IMG/VR virus record: IMGVR_UViG_3300048576_000566
Span: 1 to 48,447 of that record
DNA length: 48,447 nt
Source of the DNA: a virus
Lineage: Duplodnaviria > Caudoviricetes
Direction: 5' to 3' (one strand)
This document shows positions 1 through 46,118 of this stretch, piece after piece (within the stretch, counting starts at the first letter, position 1; every line of letters begins with the position of its first letter). The position numbers were made by a program, and so were the translations under genes. A model generated the notes under the pieces. The model did not search any database and was not told the DNA's origin. It saw only the letters and a list, made by a program, of their open reading frames with translations.

Positions 1-465
1 TCAGCGCGTCGACGCCCATTCGGCGCGCAGCGGCTCCGCATCCTCCCTGCCGTCCAGCCAGCGGGAATAGGCGGCGGCGTCGAAGGGCACCGGTACGATG
101 GTGTGGAACATGCCCAGCAGCCCCGCGCAGACCGACTGCTGGATGCGCCACATGACCGGTTCGCGGTGCGGCAGGGACGCCCAGTCTTCTTCCCGCTCGT
201 ACCACAGAATGATGATGGCCTCCGGCACGCCGCCCTTTTCCCGGATCTGCCCGCGGATGTTGTCGGCCGTCGCCGCCAGCGCGGTCGACCGCCATTCGAC
301 CAGTTCCCGCATGCGCTGCGCGACGGCTTCCGGCAGCGGCTCGGAACCGTCCTCCCACGCCTGCCACTGCCGTTCGGTGACGGCCGGCGCCGCGACCCAG
401 CGTGCGGCTTCCCCATGGGAGAAAAACAGAAGACGGCGGAGGGCTTGCAGCGTGGTCGGGGTCAT
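1..465 (-). CDS. Host-side HTH/DUF1870 (YdiL/Aca2-like) family protein
   Basis: 154-aa ORF; N-terminal LQALRRLLFFS..EAA..V...VTERQWQAWEDG..P.P resembles XRE-HTH/DUF1870 proteins; lies outside the left att site. Confidence 0.55.
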   Translation of the reverse strand: MTPTTLQALRRLLFFSHGEAARWVAAPAVTERQWQAWEDGSEPLPEAVAQRMRELVEWRSTALAATADNIRGQIREKGGVPEAIIILWYEREEDWASLPHREPVMWRIQQSVCAGLLGMFHTIVPVPFDAAAYSRWLDGREDAEPLRAEWASTR

Positions 466-615: not shown

Positions 616-649
616 AAAAGAAAAAGGGGCTGCAGCGAGTGCAACCCCT
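616..649 (-). terminator. Rho-independent terminator of the host tRNA-Asn, displaced by integration
   Basis: Minus strand AGGGGTTGCA-CTCGC-TGCAGCCCCT followed by a T-run, 10 nt beyond the duplicated tRNA CCA end. Confidence 0.75.
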
Positions 650-659
650 CGTGTCACTT

Positions 660-672
660 TGGCTCCCCGACC
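660..672. repeat. Left attachment site core (duplicated tRNA-Asn 3' end)
   Basis: TGGCTCCCCGACC identical to 48406-48418. Confidence 0.9.
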
Positions 673-738
673 GAGGCTTGCTAAGAACCGCAAGTATAAC
701 ATTATTCATGCCTAAACGCTTCTGCTTAGCCGCTTGAG

Positions 739-5740: not shown

Positions 5741-7390
5741 ATGCCGCGCGTCACCGCCGCCGAACGCATCCAGATCGCCAGCCGGGCCGAGGCGGCGATC
5801 ATGAAGTTCGCCCGCGCCGACCCGGAGACGGGGCTGCGGCCGCACGCCCTATGGCACAAACACGTGCACAACGTGACGCTCGACCCCGTGCAGGTGCTCA
5901 AGATGGTCGAGATGGACCAGCACCCGAACACCATCGACGTTTCCTGCCGGCGCACCGGCAAGACGGCGGGCAAGGAGATGTACCTGCTCGAGCACCTGGC
6001 CACCATGCCGCACCAGGATCTCGGCGTCGTCGCACCGCGCCAGCAGCAGGCGCAGAACAACCTCTCGTATCACCTCGACGCCCTCCAGCGCTCCGAGATG
6101 CTGGCCAGCTACATCGGCTACAAGAACGGCCGCAAGCAGAAATCGGACACCAAATATGAGTTCGCCAATGGCAGCGGCGCCTCGGCCTACGGCATCATGA
6201 GCCAGATCGACGGCGATTCGCTGACCGCCGCCTCGCTCGAGGAAACCGACGACATGCCGGCCGAACGCCTGCTCTCGCGCTTCCTGCCCATGCTCGGCGC
6301 CGCGCGCCGGCTCGGCGTCGATCCGGGCGCCGCCAGCTTCAAGCCGCAGATCCGCATCACCGGCGTGTTCAAGGGCGCGGACGTGCTGCAAGCGCTGCTC
6401 GACTCCGGGCAGTACAAGCTGCTGCCGGCGGTCGACGTCTACCTCGGCATCGAACTCGGCATCCTCAACGAGAAATTCATGCTCGAGATGCGCGCGCAGT
6501 TGCCCGAGGGCGAGTTCATCCGCCAGTTCCTGTGCATGAACATCGGCAGCCAGAACTTCATCTGGGAAAAGCACATCCGCCGCGCCCTGGCCCTGGGGCT
6601 GCAGGCCGGCCTGCAGCTGGCCGGGCCGCTGCCGGGGGCACGCTACAAGAAGCGCGGCCTCGTCTCCCTCGGCTACGACCACACCGGCCACGGCGAAAGC
6701 CTCACCGCGTCGAAATCCGCGCTGGTCGTCACCGAGCAGATCGGCGCCTTCGTCACCTTCCCCTACGTGCGCACCTGGCCGGCCGGCACCGACGACAAGG
6801 TCATCGAGAACGACCTCTACGCCCTGTACGACTACTTCCGCCCGGACGTCGCCATCGGCGACGCATTCGGCGTCGGCATGCTCACCAGTCTCAACGACCG
6901 GCTGTTCAAGGGCGGGCTGACCGACATCGACCGGCGCACCATCGGCGACGGCCAGAGCACCGCCAGCACCTGGGGCGAATGGCCGTTCGCCCCGCTGCGC
7001 TTCGAAGGCATGGTCAAGCACAGCATGGCCAGCGCGCTGAAGGCCATATTCCACAACGGCAACGCCGCCATCCCCTACGTCGACACCGGCGCCGACGCCG
7101 TGCGCGACGACGCAAACGTCGTCTGGACGCCGAAAGAGATCTGGAGCGACAAGGAAGCCGCCGCCGACTGGCTGCTCTTCTGCCGTCAGCTCGGCAACAT
7201 CAAGACCGAGGAGACCCGGGCCGGCTATCTCAGCTTCAAGATGGCCGAGCCGCGCCTCGGCGACGACCTGTTCGACGCCGCCATGGCCGCGAACTGGGGT
7301 CTGGTCACCCGCGGCGCCGACCTCGTCCCGGCAGTGATCGGCGCGCGCACCCAGACCCGCGAGCAGCTGCTCGGGAGGCGCGCCGCATGA
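5741..7390 (+). CDS. terL: Terminase large subunit
   Basis: Walker A SCRRTGKT, Walker B-like SLEETDD, nuclease motifs LGYD and GDDLFDA. Confidence 0.85.
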   Translation: MPRVTAAERIQIASRAEAAIMKFARADPETGLRPHALWHKHVHNVTLDPVQVLKMVEMDQHPNTIDVSCRRTGKTAGKEMYLLEHLATMPHQDLGVVAPRQQQAQNNLSYHLDALQRSEMLASYIGYKNGRKQKSDTKYEFANGSGASAYGIMSQIDGDSLTAASLEETDDMPAERLLSRFLPMLGAARRLGVDPGAASFKPQIRITGVFKGADVLQALLDSGQYKLLPAVDVYLGIELGILNEKFMLEMRAQLPEGEFIRQFLCMNIGSQNFIWEKHIRRALALGLQAGLQLAGPLPGARYKKRGLVSLGYDHTGHGESLTASKSALVVTEQIGAFVTFPYVRTWPAGTDDKVIENDLYALYDYFRPDVAIGDAFGVGMLTSLNDRLFKGGLTDIDRRTIGDGQSTASTWGEWPFAPLRFEGMVKHSMASALKAIFHNGNAAIPYVDTGADAVRDDANVVWTPKEIWSDKEAAADWLLFCRQLGNIKTEETRAGYLSFKMAEPRLGDDLFDAAMAANWGLVTRGADLVPAVIGARTQTREQLLGRRAA

Positions 7391-12733: not shown

Positions 12734-15256
12734 ATGTCATGTAAATCACGCATCATCCGGCTGGAAGCGCCGGCCGAACGGACAGTGCGATTCCTGTCCG
12801 GACTCCATGTGCAGCTGGAGGACGGCGTCACGCGCTCCTGGGTGACCATCACCCGCACCGGCACATTCACCGATCCGCGCTATGGCAAGTTCGACATCAC
12901 GCGCGAGATGCTCCTGTCGATGGTCGCCAACTTCGAGGCCAACACCTACGGGCAGGACATCTTCGTCGACGTCGGGCACAAGCCGCAGGACGGCGCCGCG
13001 GCCAAGGTCGTCAGGCTGGCCGTCGAAGGCGACCGCCTGCGCGCGCAGGTCGAGTGGACGCCGTACGGCATCGACGCGGTGAAGAACAAGGGCATGGCCT
13101 ACCTCTCCGCCGAGTATCACGAGAATTTCCGCGACAACGAAACCGGTACCGCCCATGGATGCGTGCTCCTGGGCGCGGGGCTTGTGACCCGGCCCTGCAT
13201 CAAGCGGCTCGATCCGGTCCAGTTGAGCGAAGCGGACGCCGGCGCCAAGGGCGCGGCCGTCCTGCTGCATCCGACCCTCCTTACCGAACTTCTCTCCGAG
13301 GTCAAGAACACCATGGAAAAACATCTCAAGCAGCTGGAAGAACAACTGCGCGCCCGCAAGCTCTCCGACGCCGCGATCACCTCTATCCTGGCCGCCGCCC
13401 GGCAGGCGCTCACCGGCATGAGCGACGACGCGACGATGAAGTCGCTGTGCGACGCGCTGCTCGACGGCGCCGTGAAGCTCGCCGAAGGCTCAGCGCCGGT
13501 CATCAACATCACCGGCGGCGGCCTCACCGCCGCCGACGTCACCCGCCTCCTGGCCGAAGCCGACGCCCGGAAGGACGATGCCGCGAAGAAACTGGCCGAG
13601 ACGCTCGACGGCCACCGCAAGATCCTCGCCGACGCGATCAACGCGGCCACCGGCTTCGACGCCGAGGTCAAGGCCAAGCTGCTCGCCGACGCGGCCGAGC
13701 TCGTCACCGCCGCGATGAGCGCCGACCAGGTCAAGCGCCTGGCCGAGCACATGGTGCGCGTCGGCAACGATCTTGTCGTCGCCCGCCAGCTCTCCGCGCA
13801 GGGCTACCGCATCGCCGGCACCGCGCACATCACGGTCGACGACTCCAACTCCATCAAGGCGCTGCAGGAAGCCGTCGACAAGCGCCTGCGCCTGTCGCCG
13901 CCGAAGGATTCGGCGAACAAGGAACTGGTCGACGCCGCGCTGGCGCTCTACGACGCCGAGCACGCCGCCCAGCTGCACCGCGAGCACAAGCAGCTCGCCG
14001 GCGGCGACGGCATCATCTCCGACGTCTCGGTGCCGGCCGCCTTCGAGCGCACGGTGATCCGCGAGGCCTTGTACCCGCTCGTCGCCCTGCAGTTCGTGAA
14101 CGTCGGCACCGCCGAATTCGGCGGCTCGCTGCAGATCCCGTACAGCTACCGCGACACCACGGCCGCCGGACGCGACGCCACGCGCAAGTACGAGGGCCAG
14201 GGCATCGCCCGCGCCGGCATCAAGCAGGCGATGGATACCGCCTACCCGCTGCCGCAGAAGCTCGCCTTCGAGGTCTCGGACGAACTGCGCTACCTCACCG
14301 CCACGGGCCGCATCGATTTCGAGGCCGTCGCCGAGAACGTGCGCAACGCCGCGCGCATCATCGGCGAGGACACCGAGCGCCTGCTGCTCAACGAGATGGT
14401 CAACGCCGGCGATGAATTCGCGGTGACCACCGTGGCCACCGAGACGCTCACCTCGCAAGTCAACGGCACCAACAAGGTCTTCGTCCTGGCCAACTTCCCG
14501 GTGGTCAAGCCGCGCAAGATCTTCGACCTGCAGGGCAACCAGGTCGGCAGCACGGCCAACCCGATCACCGTCACGCTCAACAGCGTGGCACGCAACGAGT
14601 ACGACGGCACCGGTACGCAAGCCGCCGGCACCTACTGGACGATGGACTATAACCTCGGCGAACTGCGCTTCGTCACCGAGGCCGGCGTGGCGGTCGCGCC
14701 GACGAGCGGCTGGGCGCTGGTGGTCGGCTACGGCTACACCACCAACGTCTACAAGTTCGACACCGATCTCGGCTCGCTCACCGCCGGCGCCAAGTGGGAC
14801 GACTTTCTCTACCGCTACGGCCTGCGCCGCTCGGTGCTGGAAGACCAGCGCTTCTACCGCGCCAACTTCGGCCTGATGGCCGGCACCATCCACGAGATGA
14901 TCCTGCTGGCCAACCAGTACAAAGCCTCGGACGCTCGCGGCCAGACCGCGGTCAACGCCGCCGGCGACCTGGGCCCGGTCCGCAGCGTGCCGAACTACAA
15001 GAGCTTCGCCCCCGGGCTGCAGCTGGCGGACACGCGCGTGCTGATCGGCGAGCGCGCCAACACCCGCTACCGCATGGCCAAGCCCTGGGCCATGGGCGAG
15101 TTGCAGGACCAGCACGACAGCAACGGCCGCTTCACCGGCAAGAAGGAAGCGTACGGCGACCAGTTCGTCTTCCTGCACACGCCGGCGCCGCTGAAGGGCT
15201 GCTACACCAGCGTCGTGCTGTATTCCGCCACGGGCCGCGTGGCCCGCGCCGCGTAA
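12734..15256 (+). CDS. Fused prohead protease-scaffold-major capsid protein
   Basis: N-terminal Mu I-like protease (VDVGH, VEWTPYG, YLSAEY, LLGAGLVTRP); Ala-rich helical middle; capsid-like C-terminal half. Confidence 0.75.
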   Translation: MSCKSRIIRLEAPAERTVRFLSGLHVQLEDGVTRSWVTITRTGTFTDPRYGKFDITREMLLSMVANFEANTYGQDIFVDVGHKPQDGAAAKVVRLAVEGDRLRAQVEWTPYGIDAVKNKGMAYLSAEYHENFRDNETGTAHGCVLLGAGLVTRPCIKRLDPVQLSEADAGAKGAAVLLHPTLLTELLSEVKNTMEKHLKQLEEQLRARKLSDAAITSILAAARQALTGMSDDATMKSLCDALLDGAVKLAEGSAPVINITGGGLTAADVTRLLAEADARKDDAAKKLAETLDGHRKILADAINAATGFDAEVKAKLLADAAELVTAAMSADQVKRLAEHMVRVGNDLVVARQLSAQGYRIAGTAHITVDDSNSIKALQEAVDKRLRLSPPKDSANKELVDAALALYDAEHAAQLHREHKQLAGGDGIISDVSVPAAFERTVIREALYPLVALQFVNVGTAEFGGSLQIPYSYRDTTAAGRDATRKYEGQGIARAGIKQAMDTAYPLPQKLAFEVSDELRYLTATGRIDFEAVAENVRNAARIIGEDTERLLLNEMVNAGDEFAVTTVATETLTSQVNGTNKVFVLANFPVVKPRKIFDLQGNQVGSTANPITVTLNSVARNEYDGTGTQAAGTYWTMDYNLGELRFVTEAGVAVAPTSGWALVVGYGYTTNVYKFDTDLGSLTAGAKWDDFLYRYGLRRSVLEDQRFYRANFGLMAGTIHEMILLANQYKASDARGQTAVNAAGDLGPVRSVPNYKSFAPGLQLADTRVLIGERANTRYRMAKPWAMGELQDQHDSNGRFTGKKEAYGDQFVFLHTPAPLKGCYTSVVLYSATGRVARAA

Positions 15257-28097: not shown

Positions 28098-28832
28098 TCA
28101 ATCTGCTGCTTCGCCAGAAGGCTCTTGTTGAGCAAGCGTATGCCCAATCGCCTTGTAGGTCGCGCGCTTCTCAGCGGCGAGGCTCCCGTAGATCTGGATC
28201 AACTGCTCTTCGTCGTGCGTCAGCACTCGCGGTTCCGGCTCGGCCTGCGTGAAGATCGCATGCCGGGCGTCTATGGGTTTCGCGTCCCCGAGCCAGGCAT
28301 CCCGCGCCCGTAACAGGCGGTACGATCCCGCCTGTCCCCCGTAGATTGCGGCCATCCGCTCGGTGCTGATCTGGGCCAGGCGAATCTCCCGCCCCCGCGC
28401 CATGATCGCATCGAGCCCCTTCTTGCGCACGCCGAGCAGAATCTCGGTGGCCAGATAGCGGTATGTCGTCACGCGCCCGGCGCGGCCGCGCACCTCGCTC
28501 TCCATCGGCTGGCTGAGCACGGCTGCGTGCCGTTGCCCGTCGGTCGCAATCGTCACCGTCCACGGCTCGTCGTGCAGGTGCATGTCGAGGGTCTCGGCGC
28601 ACTCATCCTCGTCGACGAAACGCCAGACTTCGAACGGCGTGCCCCGGCCCTCCGTCAGCCATTCGACGCGTACGCCTTCAATCCGCCGGATGGTGAAGAG
28701 CGTTTCCCATCCCGGCGTCGTCAGCTTGGTTTTCAGGTTCTGGATGATTCCTCGGTTGATGCCGAATTCCTTCGCCCAACCGTATTCGGTTCGGTCTTCG
28801 AGCACCTGTTTTAATCGCTGAAGAATATCCAT
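28098..28832 (-). CDS. CI-like repressor (N-terminal HTH)
   Basis: Only clear minus-strand phage gene, divergent from the early operon; HTH ending VRVEWLTEGRG; no visible S24 peptidase motif. Confidence 0.75.
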   Translation of the reverse strand: MDILQRLKQVLEDRTEYGWAKEFGINRGIIQNLKTKLTTPGWETLFTIRRIEGVRVEWLTEGRGTPFEVWRFVDEDECAETLDMHLHDEPWTVTIATDGQRHAAVLSQPMESEVRGRAGRVTTYRYLATEILLGVRKKGLDAIMARGREIRLAQISTERMAAIYGGQAGSYRLLRARDAWLGDAKPIDARHAIFTQAEPEPRVLTHDEEQLIQIYGSLAAEKRATYKAIGHTLAQQEPSGEAAD

Positions 28833-28935: not shown

Positions 28936-29097
28936 ATGAGCGAAAAGCGTAGCGCCTCCTTGGTTACGGTCAGCCTGCCCAAAGGCGATAAGGATCGCCT
29001 CAAGGCGTTGGCCGAAAAGGAACAGCGCACCGTCTCGAATCTCGCGTGCGTTCTATTGCGTGAAGCGCTCAAGAAGCGCGAAAAGGTGGCGGCCTGA
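28936..29097 (+). CDS. Ribbon-helix-helix (Arc/CopG-like) protein in the Cro position; not in ORF track
   Basis: GGAG SD; 53 aa MSEKRSASLVTVSLPKGDKDRLKALAEKEQRTVSNLACVLLREALKKREKVAA. Confidence 0.8.
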   Translation: MSEKRSASLVTVSLPKGDKDRLKALAEKEQRTVSNLACVLLREALKKREKVAA

Positions 29098-29098
29098 G

Positions 29099-29317
29099 AT
29101 GGCCGACATGCCTGAATCCCTGCGCCGGACCGGCCTCGTGTCGATCAGCGACAACATTCCGGAAGGGTACAGCGCGGCGATTGCGCGGGATTTCGTACGC
29201 GTTTTCCGCGCGGACCTCGAGCACCGGCTGTACGGATGGACAAAGCCGGTTCCCGCCCTGACCCGTTCCCCCGTACCGCCCCGTATCCCCGTAAAGAAGC
29301 CCAGGAGCGAACCATGA
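29099..29317 (+). CDS. Small early protein, paralogue of 30437..30631
   Basis: Shares IARDFVR.FRADLE.RLYGWTKP with 30437..30631. Confidence 0.7.
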   Translation: MADMPESLRRTGLVSISDNIPEGYSAAIARDFVRVFRADLEHRLYGWTKPVPALTRSPVPPRIPVKKPRSEP

Positions 29318-30444: not shown

Positions 30445-30631
30445 CCCCCTCCCCGACCCGCTGCGCCGCGCCGGCCTTGAGCGCCTGACCGACAACCTGC
30501 CCGAGGGCGCTTCGCTGGATATCGCCCGCGACTTCGTCCGCATCTTCCGCGCCGACCTCGAGCAGCGCCTCTATGGCTGGACCAAGCCCGCGCCGGCGGT
30601 CACCCGGCGCCTGCCGCAGGAGGACCGCTGA
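30437..30631 (+). CDS. Small early protein, paralogue of 29099..29317
   Basis: Shared conserved core. Confidence 0.7.
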   Translation: MTSPLPDPLRRAGLERLTDNLPEGASLDIARDFVRIFRADLEQRLYGWTKPAPAVTRRLPQEDR

Positions 30632-30750
30632 TGCCCTCCCTGCGCGACTGGCTGCAGGCCCTGGCCGCCATCCTCGTCTTCTCCACGGTCACGTCGGCGC
30701 TCGATCCCGCCGCGCCGGCCGAACTTCCCCGGATCGGACAGGAGCGAACG

Positions 30751-31452
30751 ATGAACCGTTATCTCACCGAGGCCGAGCAGACCAAGCTGCTCTGGACCTT
30801 GAAGGTGCACAGCGGCGACCCGCTGGCCGCGCGCGATTACGCCTGGGTGCGCGCGCTGCGCCATTCCGGGCTGCGCATCCAGGAGTTCTCCCGCATCAGC
30901 GTCGGCGACACGCTGGCCGCGCTGCGCTCGGGCTACCTCTACATCCCGCGCGAACACCGCAAGGGCTGGAACCGCAAGCCCGCGCAGGACGGCAAGCTGC
31001 GCAAGCCGCCGAAGGACCACAGCGTCTACCTCACCGACGCCCTGCGCCGCGCGCTGCAGGATCTGCTGAAGTGCCGCTTCGAGATCACCGGCGCCGACTG
31101 CCGCGAAGTCGATCCGCTCGTCGTCTCGCGCCACGGCACGGCGATGAGCGTGCGCAACTACGAGCTGCGCCTGTCCGCCTGGGCGGTCAAGGCCGGACTG
31201 CCTCCGGGCGTCTCCCCGCACTGGCTGCGCCACACCCGCGCCATGGCGATCATGCAGGAGAGCACCGCGCGCGACCCCCGCGGCGTGGTGCAGAAGGCCC
31301 TCGGCCACGCCGACATCCGTTCCAGCGGCGTCTACACCCAGACCCCGCGCGAGGAGGTCGAGGCCACCCTTGACGCGATCGACGCCCGCGCCGCCGGCCG
31401 CATCACCCTGGCGGCCCTGCGCCGCGCGTTCTACGGGAGGGCCGCAGCATGA
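30751..31452 (+). CDS. Short tyrosine recombinase (catalytic domain only); frame also open from 30631
   Basis: SGLR, HWLRH, LGH and catalytic Y; AGGAG SD before 30751. Confidence 0.85.
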   Translation: MNRYLTEAEQTKLLWTLKVHSGDPLAARDYAWVRALRHSGLRIQEFSRISVGDTLAALRSGYLYIPREHRKGWNRKPAQDGKLRKPPKDHSVYLTDALRRALQDLLKCRFEITGADCREVDPLVVSRHGTAMSVRNYELRLSAWAVKAGLPPGVSPHWLRHTRAMAIMQESTARDPRGVVQKALGHADIRSSGVYTQTPREEVEATLDAIDARAAGRITLAALRRAFYGRAAA

Positions 31453-31916
31453 GCGACTTCAAAATCGAGGTCAAGCCGCTCGAGGACGGCAACCGCCAGG
31501 ACGATCACTGGCTCACGGTCACCACCACGATGCGCAACTCCGAGTTCGAGCGGTTCCATGCCGCCATGCAATCGGACGACTGGGAAAAGCGCCAGGCCCT
31601 GCGCAACGCCGACCTGCAGACCTGTCTCAAGTCGATCCAGGTGGCCATGAACTGGGCGATGCACCACGACTGTAGCGGCGCCGCCGTCTTCGCCCGCCTG
31701 CTGGCCAGCCTGTACAACGGCGACCGCGTGAAGATGGATGCCTCGCGCCTGGTCTTCGTGCTCGACGGCCCCAACTTGGAGCACGCGCTCAACGTCATCC
31801 GCCTGTGCTACGAGACACGCCGCGAGCCGCACACCTTCTTCGTCGACGGCGGCGATCTGTTCGAACGGATGATCGCCACCTGGGGCTTCGAGAAGCGCCG
31901 GAGGAAGGCGGCATGA
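31449..31916 (+). CDS. Hypothetical phage protein
   Basis: ATGA coupled; SGAAVFARLLASLYNG motif. Confidence 0.65.
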   Translation: MSDFKIEVKPLEDGNRQDDHWLTVTTTMRNSEFERFHAAMQSDDWEKRQALRNADLQTCLKSIQVAMNWAMHHDCSGAAVFARLLASLYNGDRVKMDASRLVFVLDGPNLEHALNVIRLCYETRREPHTFFVDGGDLFERMIATWGFEKRRRKAA

Positions 31917-32213: not shown

Positions 32214-32282
32214 CCATCAGGAGCGAAAAACCATGATCAATGCCTTATTCATCGACCCGTCGACAGCAGGGAGGCGGAAGAC

Positions 32283-32603
32283 ATGCTGACCTTCGCCGAC
32301 GAAATGCGCGCGCTCGAATTGGCCGTAGCCGCCGAGGCCGCCCGGCGGGCCGAAGCGCTGGCGAACTCCCAACGGGACGCGATCAGCCTCGCCCGGCGGC
32401 AGGGGCTGCTCGACGCGATTTTGCAGCACGGCCCGATGACCGCGCGGCAGTGCGCCGAGGCCACCGGTTTCAGCCGGGACAGCACGCTGCACCACCTCAA
32501 CACCCTGATCGCGCTGGAGCAGGTCGTCCGCCGCAACGCGAACGGGGTACGAGTCTTCTGCCTTCACCCCGACCCCACCACCACCACCACCACCACCACC
32601 TAG
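32283..32603 (+). CDS. Winged-HTH protein ending in poly-Thr
   Basis: GPMTARQCAEATGFSRDSTLHHLNTL; (ACC)8 at the 3' end. Confidence 0.65.
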   Translation: MLTFADEMRALELAVAAEAARRAEALANSQRDAISLARRQGLLDAILQHGPMTARQCAEATGFSRDSTLHHLNTLIALEQVVRRNANGVRVFCLHPDPTTTTTTTT

Positions 32604-32611
32604 GAGCGACC

Positions 32612-33259
32612 ATGCACCAATTCACCCCTTCAGCTACCCCGCGAATCGGCACCTTCATCGACGGCGGCTATTTCGGCGGCGTCATCAACGTGAATGGCAC
32701 CCACAAGGGCTTCGTTTGGGCGCCGAAAGCGGCCGGACAGATCATCGCCAGACTCCTGTTTACCGGCAAGACCGCTCAGGGCGAGTACAGCCCCCACGAC
32801 TGCGCCGCCAACACCGCGGCCCTGATCGCCTCCGGCAGCGAAGCCGCCGAGCGCGTCGCCGCACTGGACATCAACGGCTACCAGGACTGGCTCGTCCCCA
32901 GCCGCGACGTGCTCGAACTCGGCTACCGCCACTTCAAGCCGACCGCGTATCCCAACTGCTGCTCATGGCGCGACGGCGAGAACCCCAACAGCGTGCCGCC
33001 CGGCTGGCTGTACACCGAGGACAACCCGGCGCAGACGACGCTGGAGGCTTTCAAGGCGGGCGGTCCAGAGGCGTTCGACGCCGCGTGGTACGGGTCTTCG
33101 ACCGTTTTTCCCGACGGCATGACGGCGTTCGTCCAGGTCTTCTGCATCGGCGATCAGTACGGCATCAACCTCTCGTCTGAGGTCCGCGTCCGTGCCGTCA
33201 GGCTGATTCAACTCGGTTCTTCAATCCTTCAATCCTTTATCAGGAATTCGCCCACATGA
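32612..33259 (+). CDS. DGR target protein 1 (DUF1566/CLec-like, 215 aa)
   Basis: AGGAG SD; GGYFGG, GYQDWLVPSRDVL, WYGSST and terminal RVRAVR motifs; contains VR1. Confidence 0.85.
   Translation: MHQFTPSATPRIGTFIDGGYFGGVINVNGTHKGFVWAPKAAGQIIARLLFTGKTAQGEYSPHDCAANTAALIASGSEAAERVAALDINGYQDWLVPSRDVLELGYRHFKPTAYPNCCSWRDGENPNSVPPGWLYTEDNPAQTTLEAFKAGGPEAFDAAWYGSSTVFPDGMTAFVQVFCIGDQYGINLSSEVRVRAVRLIQLGSSILQSFIRNSPT
33122..33201 (+). repeat. DGR variable repeat VR1
   Basis: Aligns ungapped to TR 34300-34379 with 9 mismatches at TR adenines and 1 non-A mismatch. Confidence 0.95.
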
Positions 33260-33750
33260 AACTGCACATCGAAAACGTCAACATCACCCTGGCCCACGCG
33301 CAACCGCCGGCCGGCCTGCTCGCCGCCCTGGCCATTGCCTCCGCCGCCAAGGCGTCGTCCCCCAGCCGGCCCGTCCCGGCCATCGGCGACAAGTGGCCCG
33401 GCCTCGCCGCCACCTACGCCGGCGTCTCGCTCTCGAAGACCGGCGACCGCCTGGTGCACCTGATCCTGTGGGACGACGATCCGCAGATGCCGCTGAACTA
33501 CGCGGATGCCGTCAAGCACGCCGAGAACGTCAAGCCGGACATGGACAGCCACCTGCCGACCCGCCACCAGGGCCTCACGCTGTTCGACAACCTGCGCGAT
33601 CGCTTCGAGACGTCTCCCTGGTACTGGCTGCTCACGAAGACGCTCAGCGGCAAGGCGGCGTTCGTCCAGCTCTTCGACATCGGCGATCAGGCCATCAGCG
33701 ACCTCTCGTCTGAGGTCCGCGTCCGTGCCGTCAGCGAGATTCCTCTTTGA
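33256..33750 (+). CDS. DGR target protein 2 (DUF1566/CLec-like, 164 aa)
   Basis: ATGA coupled to target 1; LPTR, WYW and RVRAV motifs; contains VR2. Confidence 0.85.
   Translation: MKLHIENVNITLAHAQPPAGLLAALAIASAAKASSPSRPVPAIGDKWPGLAATYAGVSLSKTGDRLVHLILWDDDPQMPLNYADAVKHAENVKPDMDSHLPTRHQGLTLFDNLRDRFETSPWYWLLTKTLSGKAAFVQLFDIGDQAISDLSSEVRVRAVSEIPL
33655..33735 (+). repeat. DGR variable repeat VR2
   Basis: Aligns ungapped to TR 34300-34380 with 10 mismatches, all at TR adenines. Confidence 0.95.
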
Positions 33751-33776
33751 CCCTTTGATCCTTTAGTCCTTCGACC

Positions 33777-34154
33777 ATGCTGCATACCGACCTGCCGATC
33801 TACAAGAAAGGGTACGACCTGCTCACCCTGGCCGCCGACGTGCACCTGAACATGCCGCGCACGTTCAAGCAAAGCCTGGGCAGGCGGGTTCATGACGAGT
33901 GTGTCGACCTGCTCCTGGAGATCGGCTACGCCAATGCCAGCCGCGGGGAAAAGCGTTGCGAGCACATCCGCAACGTCCTCCGCGGGCTGGAGGTGGTGTC
34001 GCTGATGATGCGCGTCAGTGCCGACAAAGGTTTTGTGTCCTGGAAGCTGTGGGCCAGGGCCATCGAAATGACGAACATCCTCAACAGACAGGCCGGCGGC
34101 TGGTTGAAGAAGTCAGCAACCGCGTCTGATTCATCGGGGCCAAGGCTCCCATGA
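33777..34154 (+). CDS. avd: DGR accessory variability determinant (Avd-like four-helix bundle)
   Basis: 125 aa basic helical protein, LPIYKK.YDL...PR.FK.SLG...QAGGW; position before TR/RT. Confidence 0.88.
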   Translation: MLHTDLPIYKKGYDLLTLAADVHLNMPRTFKQSLGRRVHDECVDLLLEIGYANASRGEKRCEHIRNVLRGLEVVSLMMRVSADKGFVSWKLWARAIEMTNILNRQAGGWLKKSATASDSSGPRLP

Positions 34155-35482
34155 CCGTGCGCATTATGAATCTGGTCGCACCCCTGCCTCACGAGGGCAC
34201 GGCTATGCACACCGCGGATACCGGGGAGCCCGGCTCCCGCCGGTCCGGTGCAGTTTCCCCGCCGAGCAGTCGGCGGGGCGACGTGGAAAGTGCGAACACA
34301 CGGCGTTCGTCCAGAACTTCGACAACGGCAATCAGAACAACAACAACCTCTCGTCTGAGGTCCGCGTCCGTGCCGTCAGCAGATTCATCCAACTACTCCT
34401 TCGAGCTCCTGCTCCGCGCCTATATCGATTGCCGCAAGAACAAGCGGAACACGGCCAGCGCGCTGGCGTTCGAGCAGGATCTGGAACGCAACTTGTGGCA
34501 ACTCCATGAGGAACTGACCGAGGGCAGCTACGCTCCCGGCAGATCCATCTGTTTCGTCATCACCCGGCCGAAGCCGCGCGAGGTGTGGGCAGCAGATTTC
34601 CGTGATCGCATCGTGCATCACCTTCTGCACAACCGCCTCGCGCCCTATTTTCACGCCCGCTTCATCGCCGATTCCTGCGCCTGCATCCCGGGCCGCGGCA
34701 CGCTGTACGCCGCCGAGCGCCTGGAGGCCAAGGTGCGCAGCATCACCCAGAACTGGAGCCGTCCGGCGTACTACCTGAAATGCGACCTGGAGAACTTCTT
34801 CGTCAGGATCGACAAGCGCATCCTGATGGGCCTGCTGGCTCCGAACATCGACGATCCGTGGTGGCTGCGGCTCGCCGAGGTGATCATGTTCCACGACCCG
34901 CGCCAGAACTACGCGCTGCGCGGGGACGCCCGCCTGATCGAGCGCGTGCCGCCGCACAAGCGCCTGGCCAGCCAGCCGGGGCACATCGGCATGGCGATCG
35001 GCAACCTGCCGAGCCAGTTCGGGGCGAACGTCTACCTCGACGTGCTCGACCAGTTCGCCAAGCACGTCCTGCACTGCCGCCACTACATCCGCTACGTGGA
35101 CGACTTCGTTCTGCTCCATGAATCGCCCGACTGGCTCAACGAAGCGAAGGAAAAGATGGAGGCCGTGCTGCAGGACAGGCTGCACGCCCGGCTGAACCCG
35201 AAGAAGACCGTCCTGCAGCCGGTCGCCCGCGGCATCGATTTCGTCGGCCAGGTCGTCAAGCCATGGCACCGCACCTTGCGCCGGCGCACCTTCCACGAAG
35301 CCATGTGCCGGGTTTACGAGGCCGATGACGACGACCTGTTCGCCACGGCCAACAGCTACTTCGGCCTGTTCCGGCAGGCCTCCCACAGCCACCACGACCG
35401 TGCCGAGCTGGCCAACCTGCTGCGCCGGCGCGGGCACTGCGTCAAAACCAACCTCACCAAAACCTACAGGAGATCCGCGTAA
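34151..35482 (+). CDS. DGR reverse transcriptase (alternative start GTG 34370)
   Basis: FRDRIVHH, YYLKCDLENFF, IGNLPSQ (DGR-type SQ), YIRYVDDF, GIDFVG. Confidence 0.95.
   Translation: MTVRIMNLVAPLPHEGTAMHTADTGEPGSRRSGAVSPPSSRRGDVESANTRRSSRTSTTAIRTTTTSRLRSASVPSADSSNYSFELLLRAYIDCRKNKRNTASALAFEQDLERNLWQLHEELTEGSYAPGRSICFVITRPKPREVWAADFRDRIVHHLLHNRLAPYFHARFIADSCACIPGRGTLYAAERLEAKVRSITQNWSRPAYYLKCDLENFFVRIDKRILMGLLAPNIDDPWWLRLAEVIMFHDPRQNYALRGDARLIERVPPHKRLASQPGHIGMAIGNLPSQFGANVYLDVLDQFAKHVLHCRHYIRYVDDFVLLHESPDWLNEAKEKMEAVLQDRLHARLNPKKTVLQPVARGIDFVGQVVKPWHRTLRRRTFHEAMCRVYEADDDDLFATANSYFGLFRQASHSHHDRAELANLLRRRGHCVKTNLTKTYRRSA
34300..34380 (+). ncRNA. DGR template repeat (TR)
   Basis: AAC-rich copy of both VRs; 20 adenines, 7 AAY codons in the VR frame. 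Confidence 0.93.
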
Positions 35483-35814: not shown

Positions 35815-36629
35815 TGACCACCTCCATCCGCCCCGACATCCTCACCGTCTCGGGCCACTACTTCGACTTCCTCGACCCGACGCACAACGTCGTCCAGGTC
35901 ACCGACATCGCGCACGCGCTGTCGCAGGTCTGCCGCTTCGCCGGCCACACCCGCGAGTTCTACTCGGTCGCGCAGCACAGCGTGCTGGTCAGCGACATCG
36001 TCTCCCCCGAGAACGCTCTGATCGCGCTCTTCCATGACGCGGTCGAAGCCTACATCGGCGACGTCACCCGGCCGCTGAAGAACCTGCTGCCCGAATACCG
36101 CGTCATCGAAGCGCGCCTGCAGGCCGACATCTTCCGCAAGCTCGGCCTGCCCGAGCAGATCCCCGCGGAGGTCAAGCATGCGGACCTGATCCTGCTCGCC
36201 ACCGAGCAGCGCGACCTGATGCCCGAGCACGACGACGAATGGTCCCTCATCGCGCACGTCGACCCGTTGCCGGACAGCATCGTGGCGTGGTCACCCGACG
36301 AGGCAGAAGAGTACTTCCTCGACCGGTATTGGGAGCTGACCGATCCGGACGGCCCGGCACGCATCCCTCTCGATCGACAGACTAAACCCGCATCAACGAA
36401 ATACGCCGACATGGCGCTGTGCTCGTCGCCGCTGAGCTACGACGAGGCCGTGCGGATGGAAGCCGAGCTGATGCCGCTGCTGCGCTACCTCGGCTCTCCC
36501 GGTGACTGGGGTTATGGCACTAAGCTCGGACGGTTGACCGAAGTGCTGCATGGCCTGCGCGGCGAGATCCGGCAGTCCGGCAAAGCGGCGGCGGCCCTCG
36601 AAACGAAGGATCAGGACGGTGCCGCATGA
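35814..36629 (+). CDS. HD-family phosphohydrolase (YfbR/YfdR-like deoxynucleotidase)
   Basis: DIAHALS..CRFAGH, YSVAQHS, LFHDAVEAYIGD, VKHAD. Confidence 0.85.
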   Translation: MTTSIRPDILTVSGHYFDFLDPTHNVVQVTDIAHALSQVCRFAGHTREFYSVAQHSVLVSDIVSPENALIALFHDAVEAYIGDVTRPLKNLLPEYRVIEARLQADIFRKLGLPEQIPAEVKHADLILLATEQRDLMPEHDDEWSLIAHVDPLPDSIVAWSPDEAEEYFLDRYWELTDPDGPARIPLDRQTKPASTKYADMALCSSPLSYDEAVRMEAELMPLLRYLGSPGDWGYGTKLGRLTEVLHGLRGEIRQSGKAAAALETKDQDGAA

Positions 36630-38437
36630 AACGCGACGCCTTTACCTTCGCTGCGCCGGACGTCCGCGAGATCCGCCATTTCCACCTCTTCGGCGCCATC
36701 GGCGGCGGCGCCAAGGGCTTCATGCGCGGCAAGGCGCGCGTCGGCAACATGGTCGCGCGCTCGCGCTGCATTGGCTCGGTCGACGTCGACGCCGCGGCCA
36801 ACCGCGACTTCAAGCGCCTGGTCGGCGTCGAGGCCACCACGCTGGACCTGTTCGACCGCGCGCAATACACCGCCTTCCACGGCCACGAGCCGCCGGCCGG
36901 CTGGCGCGAGGCGACGCCCGAGGACATCCGCAAGGCCGCCGGCCACGAATTCCCGCACATTGTCTTCCTCTCGGCGCCGTGCAAGGGCTTCTCCGGGCTG
37001 CTCAACGAGACCCGGAGCAAGACGGACAAGTACCAGGCGCTCAACCGCCTGACGCTGCGCGGCGTCTGGCTGATGCTCGAAGCCTTCAAGGACGATCTGC
37101 CCGAGCTGATCGTCTTCGAGAACGTGCCCCGGATCGCCACGCGCGGCCGGCACCTGCTGGACCAGATCGGCGACCTGCTGCGCGCCTACGGCTACGCCGT
37201 CGCCGAGACGACGCACGACTGCGGCGAGCTCGGCGAACTGGCCGAGAGCCGCAAGCGCTTCCTGCTCGTCGCCCGCAACACCGCCAAGGTGCCGCCGTTC
37301 CTGTACGAGCCGCCGAAGAAGCGCCTGCAGGCCGTCGGCACCGTCCTCGGCCGCATGCCGCTGCCGGGCGATCCCGCCGGTGGTCCGATGCACCGCATTC
37401 CGAACCTGCAGTGGAAGACCTGGGTGCGCCTGGCCTTCGTCGAGGCCGGCAGCGACTGGCGTAGCCTGAACCGGCTGGCGGTCGAGGACGGCGTCCTGCG
37501 CGACTACCTGATCGTTCCCGGCTACCACCACGGCTATCTTGGCGTGCAGCGCTGGGAGGAAACGAGTGGCACGATCCAGGGCCGATCGAGCCCGAGCAAC
37601 GGCGCCTTCTCGATCGCGGATCCGCGCCCGACGGCCGGCATGCTGGAATACTCGCAGTACGGCGTGATGCGGATGGAAGACACGTCGGGAGCGATCATCA
37701 ACGTCAAGTCGCCCGGGCAGGGCACATTCTGCGTCGCCGATCCGCGGCACGCCGGCCCGGCCAAGCACTCGAACGAGTTCCGCATCGTTCCATGGCAGCG
37801 TTCGGCGGTCGCCGTCACCAGCGCGCACGGCTCCGGGCAATGCGTCGCCGATCCAAGGCCGCCACAGGACCGCAAACCGTTCGGCAAATACGCCGTGGCG
37901 AAATTCAGCGGCAGCACCGGGACGGTGATCAGCAGCGATGATTCCGGCGCCTACGCCGTCGCCGACCCCAGGCCGAACGGCATCCCGCAGAAGGGCGACC
38001 ATTACCTCACTGGCGGCCACTACGGCGTCTGCAAGTGGGAGCAATCGAGCGGCGCCGTATCCTCGGCCGCCTGCCATGACAACGGCCGCTGGTCCGTAGC
38101 CGACCCTCGCCTGCCGGAAGCCAGCGACAAACTCGTCGCCGTCATCCGCGCCCTCGACGGCACCTGGCACCGGCCCTTCACCACGCTCGAACTCGCCGCG
38201 ATCCAGTCGCTGGTCGATCCGGAAGAAGTCCTGGAGCTCGACGGCCTCTCCGACAGCGCCTGGCGCGAGCGTATCGGCAACGCCGTCCCTCCGGCAGCGG
38301 CCGAAGCGATCGCCAGCACGATGTTCCATACCCTGCTGTTGGCCTGGTCGGGCGAGACCTTCATGCTCTCGGCCACGCCGATCTGGGTGCGGCCGGTTGC
38401 GGTGGCGCTCTCCGTGGCGCAGGGAGGTGCGGCATGA
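36626..38437 (+). CDS. C5 cytosine DNA methyltransferase with repeated variable region
   Basis: LFGAIGG, APCKGFS, FENVP, SRKRF, IGNAVP; five ADPR repeats. Confidence 0.88.
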   Translation: MKRDAFTFAAPDVREIRHFHLFGAIGGGAKGFMRGKARVGNMVARSRCIGSVDVDAAANRDFKRLVGVEATTLDLFDRAQYTAFHGHEPPAGWREATPEDIRKAAGHEFPHIVFLSAPCKGFSGLLNETRSKTDKYQALNRLTLRGVWLMLEAFKDDLPELIVFENVPRIATRGRHLLDQIGDLLRAYGYAVAETTHDCGELGELAESRKRFLLVARNTAKVPPFLYEPPKKRLQAVGTVLGRMPLPGDPAGGPMHRIPNLQWKTWVRLAFVEAGSDWRSLNRLAVEDGVLRDYLIVPGYHHGYLGVQRWEETSGTIQGRSSPSNGAFSIADPRPTAGMLEYSQYGVMRMEDTSGAIINVKSPGQGTFCVADPRHAGPAKHSNEFRIVPWQRSAVAVTSAHGSGQCVADPRPPQDRKPFGKYAVAKFSGSTGTVISSDDSGAYAVADPRPNGIPQKGDHYLTGGHYGVCKWEQSSGAVSSAACHDNGRWSVADPRLPEASDKLVAVIRALDGTWHRPFTTLELAAIQSLVDPEEVLELDGLSDSAWRERIGNAVPPAAAEAIASTMFHTLLLAWSGETFMLSATPIWVRPVAVALSVAQGGAA

Positions 38438-39253: not shown

Positions 39254-39603
39254 CCGTCCGCGACACGTCACGGAGGTTCCCTGTGACCAAAATCGAACTC
39301 AAAAGCTCGTGGATCGAGATTTTTCAGGACGCACCCACAACAGCGATAAGGCGGTCTCGCTGGGCGACATGGTTGCGTCTCGCTCGGGCGTCTGGTGCCC
39401 GTGATCAGGCCGTGATCTGGTCGGACGGTTCTGAATGCTGTCACGGCTGCGCCAGACGACGCGGAGGCTGGTGTCAGGCGCAGTCGCTGCCCTGCACCGT
39501 CAATCCGATCCTGACAATGCGCCACGGGATGATCGGAATGGCGTGCATGGGGCTGGGCTTTATTCCAAAGCAGATGACTCTGGCTCTCGGAGGTGCGGCA
39601 TGA
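39250..39603 (+). CDS. Cys-rich hypothetical protein
   Basis: Coupled on both sides; ends GGAA. Confidence 0.55.
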   Translation: MTVRDTSRRFPVTKIELKSSWIEIFQDAPTTAIRRSRWATWLRLARASGARDQAVIWSDGSECCHGCARRRGGWCQAQSLPCTVNPILTMRHGMIGMACMGLGFIPKQMTLALGGAA

Positions 39604-40832
39604 CCGTCCGCGACCTCTCCCTCTTCGTAGGCGGCGCCCGCCTGCAGATGACCGAGTCCATCGAGCTCACCATCCAGAGCCTGCAGGCCTACGGCCCGGC
39701 GCACGATCACTGGGTCATCGCGTGGTCCGGCGGCAAGGACAGCACGGCCACGCTGACGATCATCCTCTACCTGATCGCGGCCGGGCTCGTCCGCGCGCCC
39801 CGGCGCATCACCGTCCTCTACGCCGACACCCGGCAGGAACTCCCGCCGCTGGCCATCGCCGCCATGGAGATCATGGACTGCCTGGCCGAGCGCGGCATCG
39901 AGTTCCGCATCGTCCGCGCCCCGCTCGACAAGCGGTTCATGCCCTACATGCTCGGCCGCGGCGTGCCGCCGCCGAACAACAACACGCTGCGATGGTGCAC
40001 GCGCCAGATTAAAGTCGATCCGATGACCGCCGCCATCGCCGAATCGCTCGGCGACGGTACGGCGCTGGTGCTTACCGGCGTGCGCCAGGGCGAGAGCGCG
40101 ATCCGCGACCGCCGCATCGAGATGAGCTGCAGCAAGGACGGCGCCGAGTGCGGCCAGGGCTGGTATCAGCAGGTGCTGCCCGAGAGCAAGGGCGTGCGCG
40201 GCCGCATCGCCACGCTGGCACCGCTCCTGCACTGGCGCGTTTGCCACGTCTGGGAGTGGCTGCGCCACTGGGCGCCCCGCGCCGAATACGGCGACTGGCC
40301 GACCGAGATCATCGCCGACGCCTACGGCGGCGACGAGGCCGAGGAGGTCAATGCCCGCACCGGTTGCGTCGGCTGCCCGCTGGCTCAGGAGGAAAAAGCC
40401 CTGGAGTCGATCCTAGCCATGCCGCGCTGGTCGCATCTCGCGCCGCTGCGCGAACTCAAGCCGCTCTACCGCTGGCTGCGCGAGCCGGCGCAGCGCCTGC
40501 GTAAATCAGGCATTGAGCGCCTGAAAGACGGGTCGATCGGTAAGAACCCGCAGCGCATGGGGCCGCTCACCTTCGCCGCCCGAGCGGAAGCGCTGGAGCG
40601 CGTGCTGGACATCCAGCGCCGGATCAACGCCGGCGCCGCCGGCCGTCACGCCCCGTTCCTGCTGATCGACGACATCGAAGAGTCGCGCATCCGCGAACTG
40701 ATCGCCGCTGGCACCTGGCCGGATGGCTGGGACGGCGACGAGCCGACCGCCGACACTTTTCTGCCGGTGACCATCTACGCCAACGGCGCCGAGCAACACG
40801 ATCTCTTCGGACTGGAGGATGTTTTCCGATGA
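39600..40832 (+). CDS. PAPS-reductase/DndC-like PP-loop protein
   Basis: WSGGKDS, YADT..E, RWCTRQIK, TGVR..ES..R, RTGCVGCP. Confidence 0.85.
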   Translation: MTVRDLSLFVGGARLQMTESIELTIQSLQAYGPAHDHWVIAWSGGKDSTATLTIILYLIAAGLVRAPRRITVLYADTRQELPPLAIAAMEIMDCLAERGIEFRIVRAPLDKRFMPYMLGRGVPPPNNNTLRWCTRQIKVDPMTAAIAESLGDGTALVLTGVRQGESAIRDRRIEMSCSKDGAECGQGWYQQVLPESKGVRGRIATLAPLLHWRVCHVWEWLRHWAPRAEYGDWPTEIIADAYGGDEAEEVNARTGCVGCPLAQEEKALESILAMPRWSHLAPLRELKPLYRWLREPAQRLRKSGIERLKDGSIGKNPQRMGPLTFAARAEALERVLDIQRRINAGAAGRHAPFLLIDDIEESRIRELIAAGTWPDGWDGDEPTADTFLPVTIYANGAEQHDLFGLEDVFR

Positions 40833-44925: not shown

Positions 44926-45135
44926 ATGGAGATAAGCGCAATGGACACCCCCATCCACGCGTCCACCCCTTGTTCTGCGTGTGGTCTACCTGAGGACCTC
45001 GAATTCGACCTCGCTGCGCTCCTCGACGAGGATGATATCTGCCCCTGCTGTGATGGCAGCGGCGGCGACCCGCTGACCGATTTTTCCACCCCATGCGAAT
45101 ATTGTGGCGGCGAAGGGAGGCGGTGGTGGCTGTGA
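44926..45135 (+). CDS. Small DnaJ-type zinc-finger protein
   Basis: CPCCDGSG and CEYCGGEG motifs. Confidence 0.55.
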   Translation: MEISAMDTPIHASTPCSACGLPEDLEFDLAALLDEDDICPCCDGSGGDPLTDFSTPCEYCGGEGRRWWL

Positions 45136-46118
45136 TCATCGAGGACTTCCTGACCTTCAAACAGCGCAACCAGGGCCGCGGGGCCCGCACCGCGGCGGCC
45201 TACGGCGACGCGCTGCGCCGCCTGCAGCTCTTCCTCGACGGCCGCGATCTGCTGTCCGCCCAGCCCGACGAGCTCGAGATGTTCTGCGGCCCCTGGCTGC
45301 ACAAGCAGGGCGTCATGGCCGTCGCGCGCCGGCCGTACATCGCCGCGGTGCGCGAGTTCTTCAAGTGGGCGCGCCACACCCGGCGCGCCCGCGACAACCC
45401 AGCTGCCGGACTCTCATATCCGAAGACCGGCCGGAAGCTGCCGCGCGTGCTCAGCCTGGCCCACGCCGAGCGCCTGATGTGGGCGCCCGACTTCAACACG
45501 TTCAAGGGCGTGCGCGACGCCGCGATCCTCTCGGTGCTGATCGGCTGCGGCCTGCGCATCAGCGGGCTAACCGGCCTCAACCAGGGCCATCTCGCCGGCG
45601 TCGAGCACCGCGGCCAGGTCCGCATGGTCATCAAAGCCCGCGAAAAAGGCGACAAGGAGCGCCTCGTTCCCGTGCCGCGCGAAGCCGAGATGGTCCTGCG
45701 CCTCTACCTCGAGCACCCCGAGCTGAAAGACATCGACCGCACCCTGCCCGACGGCGACCAGGTCCTATTCGTCTCGACCGGCAACCGCGCCATGCCGCCC
45801 CACGAGTACATCGGCGAGGCCCGCCGCATGCATCCACGCTCGATCCGCGACATGATCCGCCAATACGGCCAGGCGGCCGGCATCCCCGTCGAGCAGCTGC
45901 ACCCTCACGCCATGCGCCACCTCTTCGGTACGGAGCTGGCCGAGTCCGACGTCGACCTGCTCGTGCGCCAGGACCTCATGGGCCACGAAGACGTCAAGCA
46001 CACCAAGATCTACACGCACCTCGCCACCCGCAAGAAGCTCGAGGACCTCGATCGAGGCGGCCCGCTGGCCAAGATCAGGACCCCGGTCAGCGAGCTGCTC
46101 TCCCGCCTGAACAAGTAG
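45132..46118 (+). CDS. XerC-like tyrosine recombinase
   Basis: N-terminal SAM-like domain; CGLR, KGDKERLVP, HAMRH, MGH, TKIY. Confidence 0.9.
   Translation: MIIEDFLTFKQRNQGRGARTAAAYGDALRRLQLFLDGRDLLSAQPDELEMFCGPWLHKQGVMAVARRPYIAAVREFFKWARHTRRARDNPAAGLSYPKTGRKLPRVLSLAHAERLMWAPDFNTFKGVRDAAILSVLIGCGLRISGLTGLNQGHLAGVEHRGQVRMVIKAREKGDKERLVPVPREAEMVLRLYLEHPELKDIDRTLPDGDQVLFVSTGNRAMPPHEYIGEARRMHPRSIRDMIRQYGQAAGIPVEQLHPHAMRHLFGTELAESDVDLLVRQDLMGHEDVKHTKIYTHLATRKKLEDLDRGGPLAKIRTPVSELLSRLNK

Follow-up and report, generated by a model that had tools for sequence, protein, structure and literature searches.

Integration of the prophage was found to exchange the C-terminal tail of its own large serine integrase in frame. 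The exchange was confirmed at the sequence level in the window, i.e., the whole 48,447-base stretch of viral DNA that was analysed (genome record G000 consisted of the window alone, with no host sequence beyond it). Recombination probably also toggles a ClpXP-type degron on the enzyme, which would turn over rapidly in the free phage and persist in the prophage. The first-pass annotation had placed the att core in frame inside the serine integrase gene, and both junctions and the reading frame were found to hold.

The window contained exactly two copies of the 13-mer TGGCTCCCCGACC, both on the plus strand and starting at 660 and 48406. These copies formed the core (660–672 and 48406–48418) that bounded a prophage of ~47.7 kb at the 3' end of tRNA-Asn. 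The integrase reading frame (46858/46864–48447, plus strand) opened with GTG at 46858; if the ATG at 46864 is taken as the start, it encoded a prophage form of 527 aa. The TGG of the core at 48406 was read in frame as a Trp codon among the last codons of this reading frame. The C-terminus of the prophage form was WLPD-LGSNQGPTD, and the reading frame ended with WLPDLGSNQGPTD and its stop codon. The antisense strand of tRNA-Asn at 48406–48447 was the source of both LGSNQGPTD and the TAA stop. At the left junction (660–672, plus strand), the 13-bp core duplicated the 3' end of tRNA-Asn at a displaced position and encoded W-L-P-D in the integrase frame. The frame from 660 onward read WLPDRGLLRTASITLFMPKRFCLAA up to the stop codon at 735–737, and the reconstructed C-terminus of the excised form was WLPD-RGLLRTASITLFMPKRFCLAA. 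The segment at 673–737 (plus strand) was the 3'-terminal part of the integrase gene, detached from the rest and encoding the attP-form tail, a likely degron with a predicted extra beta-strand. Counted from the ATG at 46864, the tail comprised 9 residues in the prophage form (527 aa) versus 21 in the excised form (539 aa).

The right junction (48406–48447, minus strand) consisted of the core and the 3' 42 nt of the host tRNA-Asn(GTT), which was truncated where the window stopped. ARAGORN called no tRNA at the right end of the window because the window stopped inside the tRNA. The final 42 nt were identical to those of locus L008, where ARAGORN called a minus-strand tRNA-Asn(GTT) of which they form the 3' part; therefore, the prophage occupies the tRNA-Asn CCA end. 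A single contig of a near-identical strain, 397 nt long and sequenced at depth 3.1 in run X3, matched 660–1040 with 4 differences, and the 13 loose letters before 660 were those of 48393–48405 in the window, which is the integrase sequence preceding the right core. The far side of this contig comprised these 13 letters only, relative to a bridging rule of 31 letters in the tool. As one contig of a near-identical strain, it supports the attP junction and is not proof of it. No contig bridged the junction from the integrase end in the four runs mapped there. The position of the attP junction, inside the 13-bp core and in frame, held by sequence, and the X3 contig and the far junctions of relatives agreed with it.

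On the host side beyond the prophage, an Aca2/YdiL-like gene was located at 1–465 (minus strand; PF08965, E 6.5e-18). A terminator-like hairpin of the host tRNA at 624–650 (minus strand), assigned by consensus match only, was parted from the tRNA by the insertion; one such hairpin was found versus 0.7 expected in shuffles, so that the terminator scans were at chance level. Inspection by eye showed hairpin-like sequences containing T runs at the corresponding position of several related far junctions. After integration, the terminator-like hairpin of the host tRNA-Asn is left at the far end, and the tRNA points into the integrase 3' end. On the minus strand from 48406 to 47707, no terminator-like match was found. 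Antisense read-through from the tRNA could help to keep the integrase silent in the lysogen.

The gene at 46864–48447 matched the Resolvase (PF00239, E 1.9e-28), Recombinase (PF07508, E 9.3e-21) and zinc ribbon (PF13408, E 5.4e-14) domains. Y12, R14, V15, S16, R86 and R89 (motifs YxRVS and RFAR) were invariant in 112 aligned rows, together with four zinc cysteines. The structure model had a long helix pair at residues 376–442, corresponding to the inserted coiled coil of the zinc-ribbon domain, and its best structural matches were the SPbeta, phiC31, Bxb1 and LI integrases. Foldseek E values against serine integrases ranged from 6e-21 to 1e-13, and the match to 9dxh had a VIA Z of 20.4 and an rmsd of 12.9 over 467 aligned residues. 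The protein thus had the YxRxS catalytic domain, the recombinase and zinc-ribbon domains with the coiled coil, and, on the right half, the att geometry of a large serine integrase. The solved integrases aligned mostly up to model residue ~497–508, and two phiC31 rows reached 520 and 524. Because the solved folds end at about residue 500, the swapped tail is an appendage, and the prophage form retains the canonical fold.

The attP inverted repeat was divided between the two ends of the window. Its left arm (48387–48399, plus strand) lay within the integrase gene and accounted for the conserved V-H-S codons, and its right arm (677–689, plus strand), which matched the left arm at 11 of 13 positions, accounted for the conserved L-R-T codons. 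In a comparison of 10 elements, the attP arms started at −19 in nine and ended at +29 in all. The T-loop of the tRNA (48426–48430 in the window) was the same motif; it ended at +24, closer to the core by 5 bp, in 10 of 10 elements. For serine integrases, a shift of 4–5 bp in the outer motif between attB and attP is given in the available part of PMC11722253. No clear left arm was found on the host side of attB. The identity between junctions spanned 10–19 bp in nine elements besides G415, and always included the initial 10 bp of the core; therefore, any crossover there yields the identical in-frame swap. Over 30 junctions, the attP symmetry peaked on the single base +5 (8.5 matches versus 2.5–4.8 elsewhere). 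Since the symmetry was centred on one base, the crossover dinucleotide was not fixed by it.

Two tail classes were found across homologues. The best 120 homologues (48–79% identity) comprised 72 proteins with attP-type tails, 40 with tails of the tRNA-antisense type and 8 unclassified, and an alignment-based scan of 80 viral loci gave the same split as the homologue proteins. The order-level genome search returned matches in 4 of 401 genomes. Among 30 loci analysed by ARAGORN, a tRNA-Asn was located at the integrase end in 15 and a tRNA-His in 1, and 4 loci with tRNA tails had no full tRNA; a tRNA was called in none of the 10 attP-tail loci. Half of the IMG/VR records with a tRNA tail were proviruses (16 of 32), and none of the 32 had terminal repeats. 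The hand-picked attP-tail records from IMG/VR (n = 37) included no provirus, five records with terminal repeats and none with the tRNA pattern. On a FastTree phylogeny of the integrase bodies, built with the tails removed from 159 of 182 rows (the 23 rows with unclassifiable tails were left out), at least 31 changes of tail type were counted, 27 of which were forced by starred branches, and this was the pattern of a reversible state. The tail labels were partly clustered on the tree, with 31 changes versus a mean of 50.5 for shuffled labels. Moreover, integrase bodies that were 85–91% identical carried opposite tail types.

The far-junction pattern was found in 9 of 35 prophage-form records. 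The tails read from these nine junctions ended in AA in seven cases and in VA in one, and the remaining one read on. In one of the nine (G212), the two junctions were on separate contigs, and in G415 both junction forms were present behind the same integrase end. The Methylobacillus record of L003 carried both junctions, at a distance of 43 kb. The other 26 of the 35 records, which may be incomplete, gave no far-junction match, and 18 more stretches (16 far ends of virus records and 2 of G153) yielded zero additional far junctions. In the four loci with a tRNA-type tail and no full tRNA (L014, L015, L022 and L026), the tRNA match stopped beyond the anticodon loop, a pattern resembling the insertion of a second element into that tRNA. 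Sub-lineages associated with other tRNAs were L056, L068, L071, L073, L090 and P0123–P0129, of which L090 was at a tRNA-His according to ARAGORN; L056 kept a KAA tail behind an altered core. In P0108, P0141 and P0144, the att region had diverged with no WLP, and the LPxRF-basic-AA end was kept.

The terminal Ala-Ala was the most consistent end of the attP-type tails. In the first homologue set (n = 72), 63 tails ended in AA and 7 in VA. After the addition of 61 more distant proteins (n = 99), 80 tails ended in AA, 8 in VA and 11 in neither, compared with a terminal AA in 15 of the 220 long background ORFs from the loci (shadow frames included). The 99 tails were 23–42 aa long; AA occurred at 6 of 1278 internal positions, and an acidic residue was present among the last five in 4 tails. 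The comparison of 63/72 with 15/220 gave a Fisher p of 2.6e-39, a value that ignores the relatedness between the sequences. In the window, 8 of the 58 listed ORFs ended in AA, several with a stop overlapping the next ATG; therefore, a lone AA end is weak evidence, and the case rests on the homologue family. Among tails that were distinct at the DNA level, 27 of 42 ended in AA, the four Ala codons were used at both places, and all three stops were used. ATGA or GTGA was present at the stop in 7 of these 27 AA tails and absent in 20. Of the 33 tails lacking the LPxRF motif, 24 still ended in AA or VA. According to this variety of codons and stops, and to the retention of AA without LPxRF, selection acts on the last residues of the protein; as far as sequence comparison can tell, the terminal AA is under selection at the protein level. 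The codon and stop usage spoke against translational coupling or att-DNA constraint as the main cause of the AA end, and both were rejected in that role.

The first-pass annotation had described the tail as an ssrA-like LAA degron. The terminal AA of this description was borne out across the homologues, since 80 of 99 attP-type tails carried it. The Leu was not the conserved part: the residue before AA was mostly basic (RAA 24, KAA 18 and LAA 6, n = 72), basic-basic-A-A was the commonest end, and LAA was in the minority. In the complete circular records (n = 5), AA was found in two (L028 and L076), TA in L085 and RGG in L046 and L049. In the latter two loci (records G447 and G450), the attP tail read on to RGG, and the core differed from the tRNA at +8; from their sequences, they are natural tag-less variants. 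The tRNA-type tails ended in Asp in 40 of 40 proteins of the first set and in 16 of 23 of the distant set. The other seven distant tails, which derived from other tRNAs, had no terminal Asp and ended in AVS, AMS, TRR and SRR.

In the available part of an E. coli C-terminal pentapeptide screen (10.1101/2024.01.29.576913), 91% of the 100 best ClpXP-dependent tags carried AA, and the tag consensus was [L/F/Y/W]-[L/A/R]-L-A-A. In the same text, a terminal Asp raised the KM about 100-fold (~800 uM for YALAD versus 8.3 uM for YALAA), and a terminal AA was not enough alone, as 39% of the AA tags were weak. The attP-form end in the window, FCLAA, matched four of the five consensus places, and the prophage-form end was Asp. 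Because its tail fits the published ClpXP tag rules, the attP-form integrase would be expected to be degraded. Some observations weigh against a degron as the main role. The 11 tails ending in neither AA nor VA, the circular records with AA in two of five, the seven distant tRNA-type tails without Asp and the clustering of tail labels on the tree fit it poorly. Furthermore, the conserved hydrophobic strand pattern, the LPxRF motif and the predicted folding of the tail exceed the needs of a degron. With these points considered, a degron toggled by recombination remained the probable reading.

A cycle is proposed for the phage on the basis of this toggling. Upon infection, the circular genome would make the 539-aa tagged integrase, the level of which would be set by the protease load of the host. 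Only a busy ClpXP or a high multiplicity would then favour integration, and re-integration would be limited in lytic growth. In the lysogen, the integrase gene ends the rightward run behind the cI/cro-like switch and would likely be silent. Upon induction, the untagged 527-aa form would accumulate and excise the prophage, and the integrase made afterwards would be tagged again and cleared. The attP tail is predicted to fold back on the C-terminal hairpin and add a third beta-strand to it, with the last two Ala residues outside the predicted contacts.

The structure of the tail was evaluated by sequence conservation and AlphaFold2 prediction. Beyond the att arm, the alternating hydrophobic columns 528, 530, 532 and 536 were 87–100% conserved, and the LPxRF motif was present in 66 of 99 attP-type tails. 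The tail of the prophage form was disordered in the AlphaFold2 model, for which the alignment mixed both tail types. In the model of P0006, a natural attP-form homologue, a strand formed at 525–531 and a helix at 534–537, and the tail block had pLDDT values of 74–78. The P0006 tail, supplied as a separate chain, docked against residues 292–506 with a score of 0.71, whereas the best of three controls reached 0.36; the docking mark was reached by 116 of 157 solved pairs and 2 of 215 mismatched pairs. The runs agreed in at least 64% of contacts, and the partner pLDDT was at least 60. The predicted contacts placed tail residues 522–538 on the strand 487–499 and the helix 337–356, and residues 539–540 were absent from the contacts. 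By alignment ends, with no superposition, these two elements map roughly to hinge 1 (D379/L380) and F532 of SPbeta. In SPbeta, the essential RDF helix packs at the hinge 1/F532 region, according to the available part of PMC11722253. On the P0006 model, the attP tail may lie at or beside the RDF site near the coiled-coil hinge. An effect of the tail on activity or direction, compatible with a degron role, is suggested by the model as a serious possibility that falls somewhat short of probable.

Another reading of these data is that the attP tail is mainly a structural switch, in which the attP form is integration-competent or RDF-blocking, the tail-less form excises or is weakly active, and the terminal AA is secondary. 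The ordering and docking of the P0006 tail, its contacts near the SPbeta RDF region and the strongly conserved hydrophobic columns speak for this reading, and the Mx8 IntP tail, as far as its description in the available sources goes, is a precedent. It is nevertheless unlikely. The prophage form keeps the fold at which most solved integrases end, AA stays terminal despite tail lengths varying from 23 to 35 aa and the loss of LPxRF, the last two residues are outside the predicted contacts, and the SPbeta equivalence comes from alignment ends. Both roles might be combined, with the attP tail acting as a degron and a built-in hinge cap: the free-phage enzyme would integrate once and be destroyed, and the tRNA-tailed enzyme would be stable, excision-competent and possibly RDF-free. 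This combination is put forward tentatively, as a possible arrangement. RDFs are unrelated to each other in sequence, according to the available part of PMC3694055. None was recognised among the integrase neighbours and flanks by profile matches, and the clustering of flank ORFs gave mainly shadow frames, with a Mor-like gene as the sole conserved small real ORF that stood out. Because RDFs share no sequence family, the lack of a recognisable RDF is no evidence.

Two further explanations concern the recombinase and the origin of the tail. The XerC-like tyrosine recombinase at 45093, two genes upstream of the integrase, or the second at 30631, might perform the recombination, with the serine enzyme as a passenger that has a swapped tail. 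In 59 of 69 loci, a homologue of the tyrosine enzyme lay no more than 3 kb away, and all five tested records without a nearby XerC-like gene held a tyrosine recombinase elsewhere. Moreover, a core of 10–13 bp in a tRNA gene and an attP symmetry on the single base +5 suit the tyrosine type, and serine integrases were not known at tRNA genes as of 2014, according to the available part of PMC4383910. This explanation is very improbable in view of the arms at −19/+29, the T-loop at +24 and the 5-bp shift in all 10 elements, which are the attP/attB geometry of serine integrases, and of the serine gene lying on the junction with invariant catalytic and zinc residues; 10 of the 69 loci also had no XerC-like neighbour within 3 kb. 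The site geometry and the invariant catalytic residues favour the serine enzyme as the putative acting recombinase. The tail might instead be a functionless by-product of DNA constraints in attP and of chance or translational coupling. The att arms and core do explain VHS, WLP and LRT, and the AA ends in the window, several of them with stops overlapping the next ATG, are in line with coupling. The conservation, however, extends 15 codons past the att arm with synonymous positions varying freely, the stop lacks both ATGA and GTGA in 20 of 27 AA tails, and the proportion of AA ends is 80/99 versus 15/220. A by-product is the least probable of the explanations, with hardly any chance of being correct. 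The preferred reading remained that of a serine integrase that acts on its own gene and probably toggles a degron on itself.

The integrase was the last gene of a rightward run, after a primase, the XerC-like recombinase and the Mor-like gene. The first gene of this run was a small gene at 28936–29097 (plus strand), which ended in KVAA and was named Cro-like from its position only. A likely CI-type repressor, distant from the att sites, was found at 28098–28832 (minus strand); its match to PF07022 (E 0.019) did not reach the curated cut-off. The repressor gene was divergent from the cro-like, antirepressor (PF10547) and CII-like (PF06892, E 6.6e-28) genes. This cI/cro/cII-like region was 19 kb from the nearer att site. 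The XerC-like tyrosine recombinase gene (45093–46118, plus strand) matched PF00589 and PF02899. The start of the integrase gene was overlapped by a conserved gene at 46370–46861 (plus strand), which is possibly a Mor-like late activator and is a candidate RDF. It had no Pfam or PHROG match, and a homologue was present in 54 of the 69 loci with enough flank. An Atlas lead based on 20% of members suggested PF08765 Mor (0.84), and the counterpart in MT855965.1 is annotated as 'middle operon regulator'.

Other features of the genome were also recorded. The second tyrosine recombinase (30631–31452) ended in RAAA, and the phage proteins at 28936–29097, 31449–31916, 5741–7390 and 12734–15256 ended in KVAA, RKAA, RRAA and ARAA, respectively; judged by these ends, protease tags may be used widely in this phage. 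A diversity-generating retroelement (DGR) with two targets was present at 32240–35482, among the early genes and not beside a tail fibre gene. It comprised a reverse transcriptase (34151–35482), a bAvd-like gene (33777–34154, below the cut-off) and a template repeat at about 34293–34387. The variable repeats at 33115 and 33648 ended the ORFs at 32240–33259 and 33256–33750, and 15 of 22 and 15 of 20 mismatches, respectively, fell on template A. A direct duplicate of 86 nt (29180–29265 and 30521–30606, 76% identical) flanked the antirepressor and CII-like genes. The early region also contained genes with similarity to C5 cytosine methyltransferases (36626–38437) and with a PAPS-reductase domain (39435–40832).

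Two known designs resemble that of the window phage. The Mx8 and SSV integrases extend across attP, according to the available part of PMC4383910. In Mx8 IntP, which was studied by Tojo 1996, Magrini 1999, and Tojo and Komano 2003 (cited in the available parts of PMC4383910 and PMC11610982), attP is likewise in the integrase gene, integration alters the C-terminus, and activity is regulated by the recombination itself. Unlike Mx8 IntP, which is a tyrosine recombinase (PMC4383910), the window enzyme belongs to the serine family; its swapped piece is a short appendage past the conserved fold with an AA end across the family, and a degron is not named for Mx8 in the available text. In the integration-dependent immunity of the BPs type, att recombination strips a C-terminal ssrA-like AA tag, and the target is a tRNA gene, as in the window phage (PMC3694055, PMC9934374 and PMC6109161, each available in part). 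The integrase level in the BPs type is controlled by proteolysis, as described there, and the same would hold for the window phage if its attP tail is a degron. The first-pass annotation had drawn this comparison; the removal of an AA tag by att recombination held, whereas the tag was on the integrase and the repressor was 19 kb away. In the descriptions available for the BPs type, attP is in the repressor gene, the integrase tag is constant, and the three-gene switch has no cII; in contrast, attP is in the integrase gene of the window phage, which has a separate cI-like repressor as well as CII-like and antirepressor genes. By the position of its tag and its repressor, the window phage is not a member of integration-dependent immunity, and the likeness is an analogy only. 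The BPs integrase is a tyrosine enzyme, in agreement with what is described for its M. abscessus relatives.

Among serine integrases, SPbeta, phiC31, Bxb1 and LI/A118 (PDB 9dxh, 9rah, 9iu2 and 4kis; PMC11722253) share with the window enzyme the domain order, the fold, the short att sites and the arms placed ~5 bp closer in attB. For these enzymes, a swappable tail, an att site inside the gene and a target in the CCA end of a tRNA are not described in the available part of PMC11722253. The Microcystis phage vB_MaeS-yong1 (MT855965.1, locus L002) has a 40% identical integrase and the same order of XerC-like, Mor-like and serine recombinase genes. Like the window phage, this isolated phage genome has an attP-type tail with the LRT motif; unlike in the window phage, the tail ends in QSAS, and the protein is annotated merely as a Pin-like invertase. 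The named relatives of the integrase were betaproteobacterial, and the Microcystis host of MT855965.1 was unexpected. VarioGold (PMC9658991) was considered as a described member and rejected, because the available part of that source gives a tyrosine integrase at tRNA-Ser. The open-licence papers and preprints searched described no serine integrase whose tail or degron is exchanged at an att site, and a prior description is possible; the main text of 10.1101/2021.11.05.467528 had no mention of 'tRNA'.

If the degron reading is true, the recombinase writes and erases its own degradation tag via its own reaction, which would constitute a one-gene feedback loop. The design of Mx8, in which the integrase gene spans attP, and that of BPs, in which a degron is controlled by att recombination, would then be joined in the serine family. 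The family also provides numerous examples of serine integrases that target tRNA genes, a target not known for them according to the available part of the 2014 island database paper (PMC4383910). The two natural isoforms, which are one short tail apart, offer a clean test of direction control without a recognised RDF. For genome engineering, integrases mined from prophages carry the tRNA-derived tail and may behave unlike the form that acts on attP.
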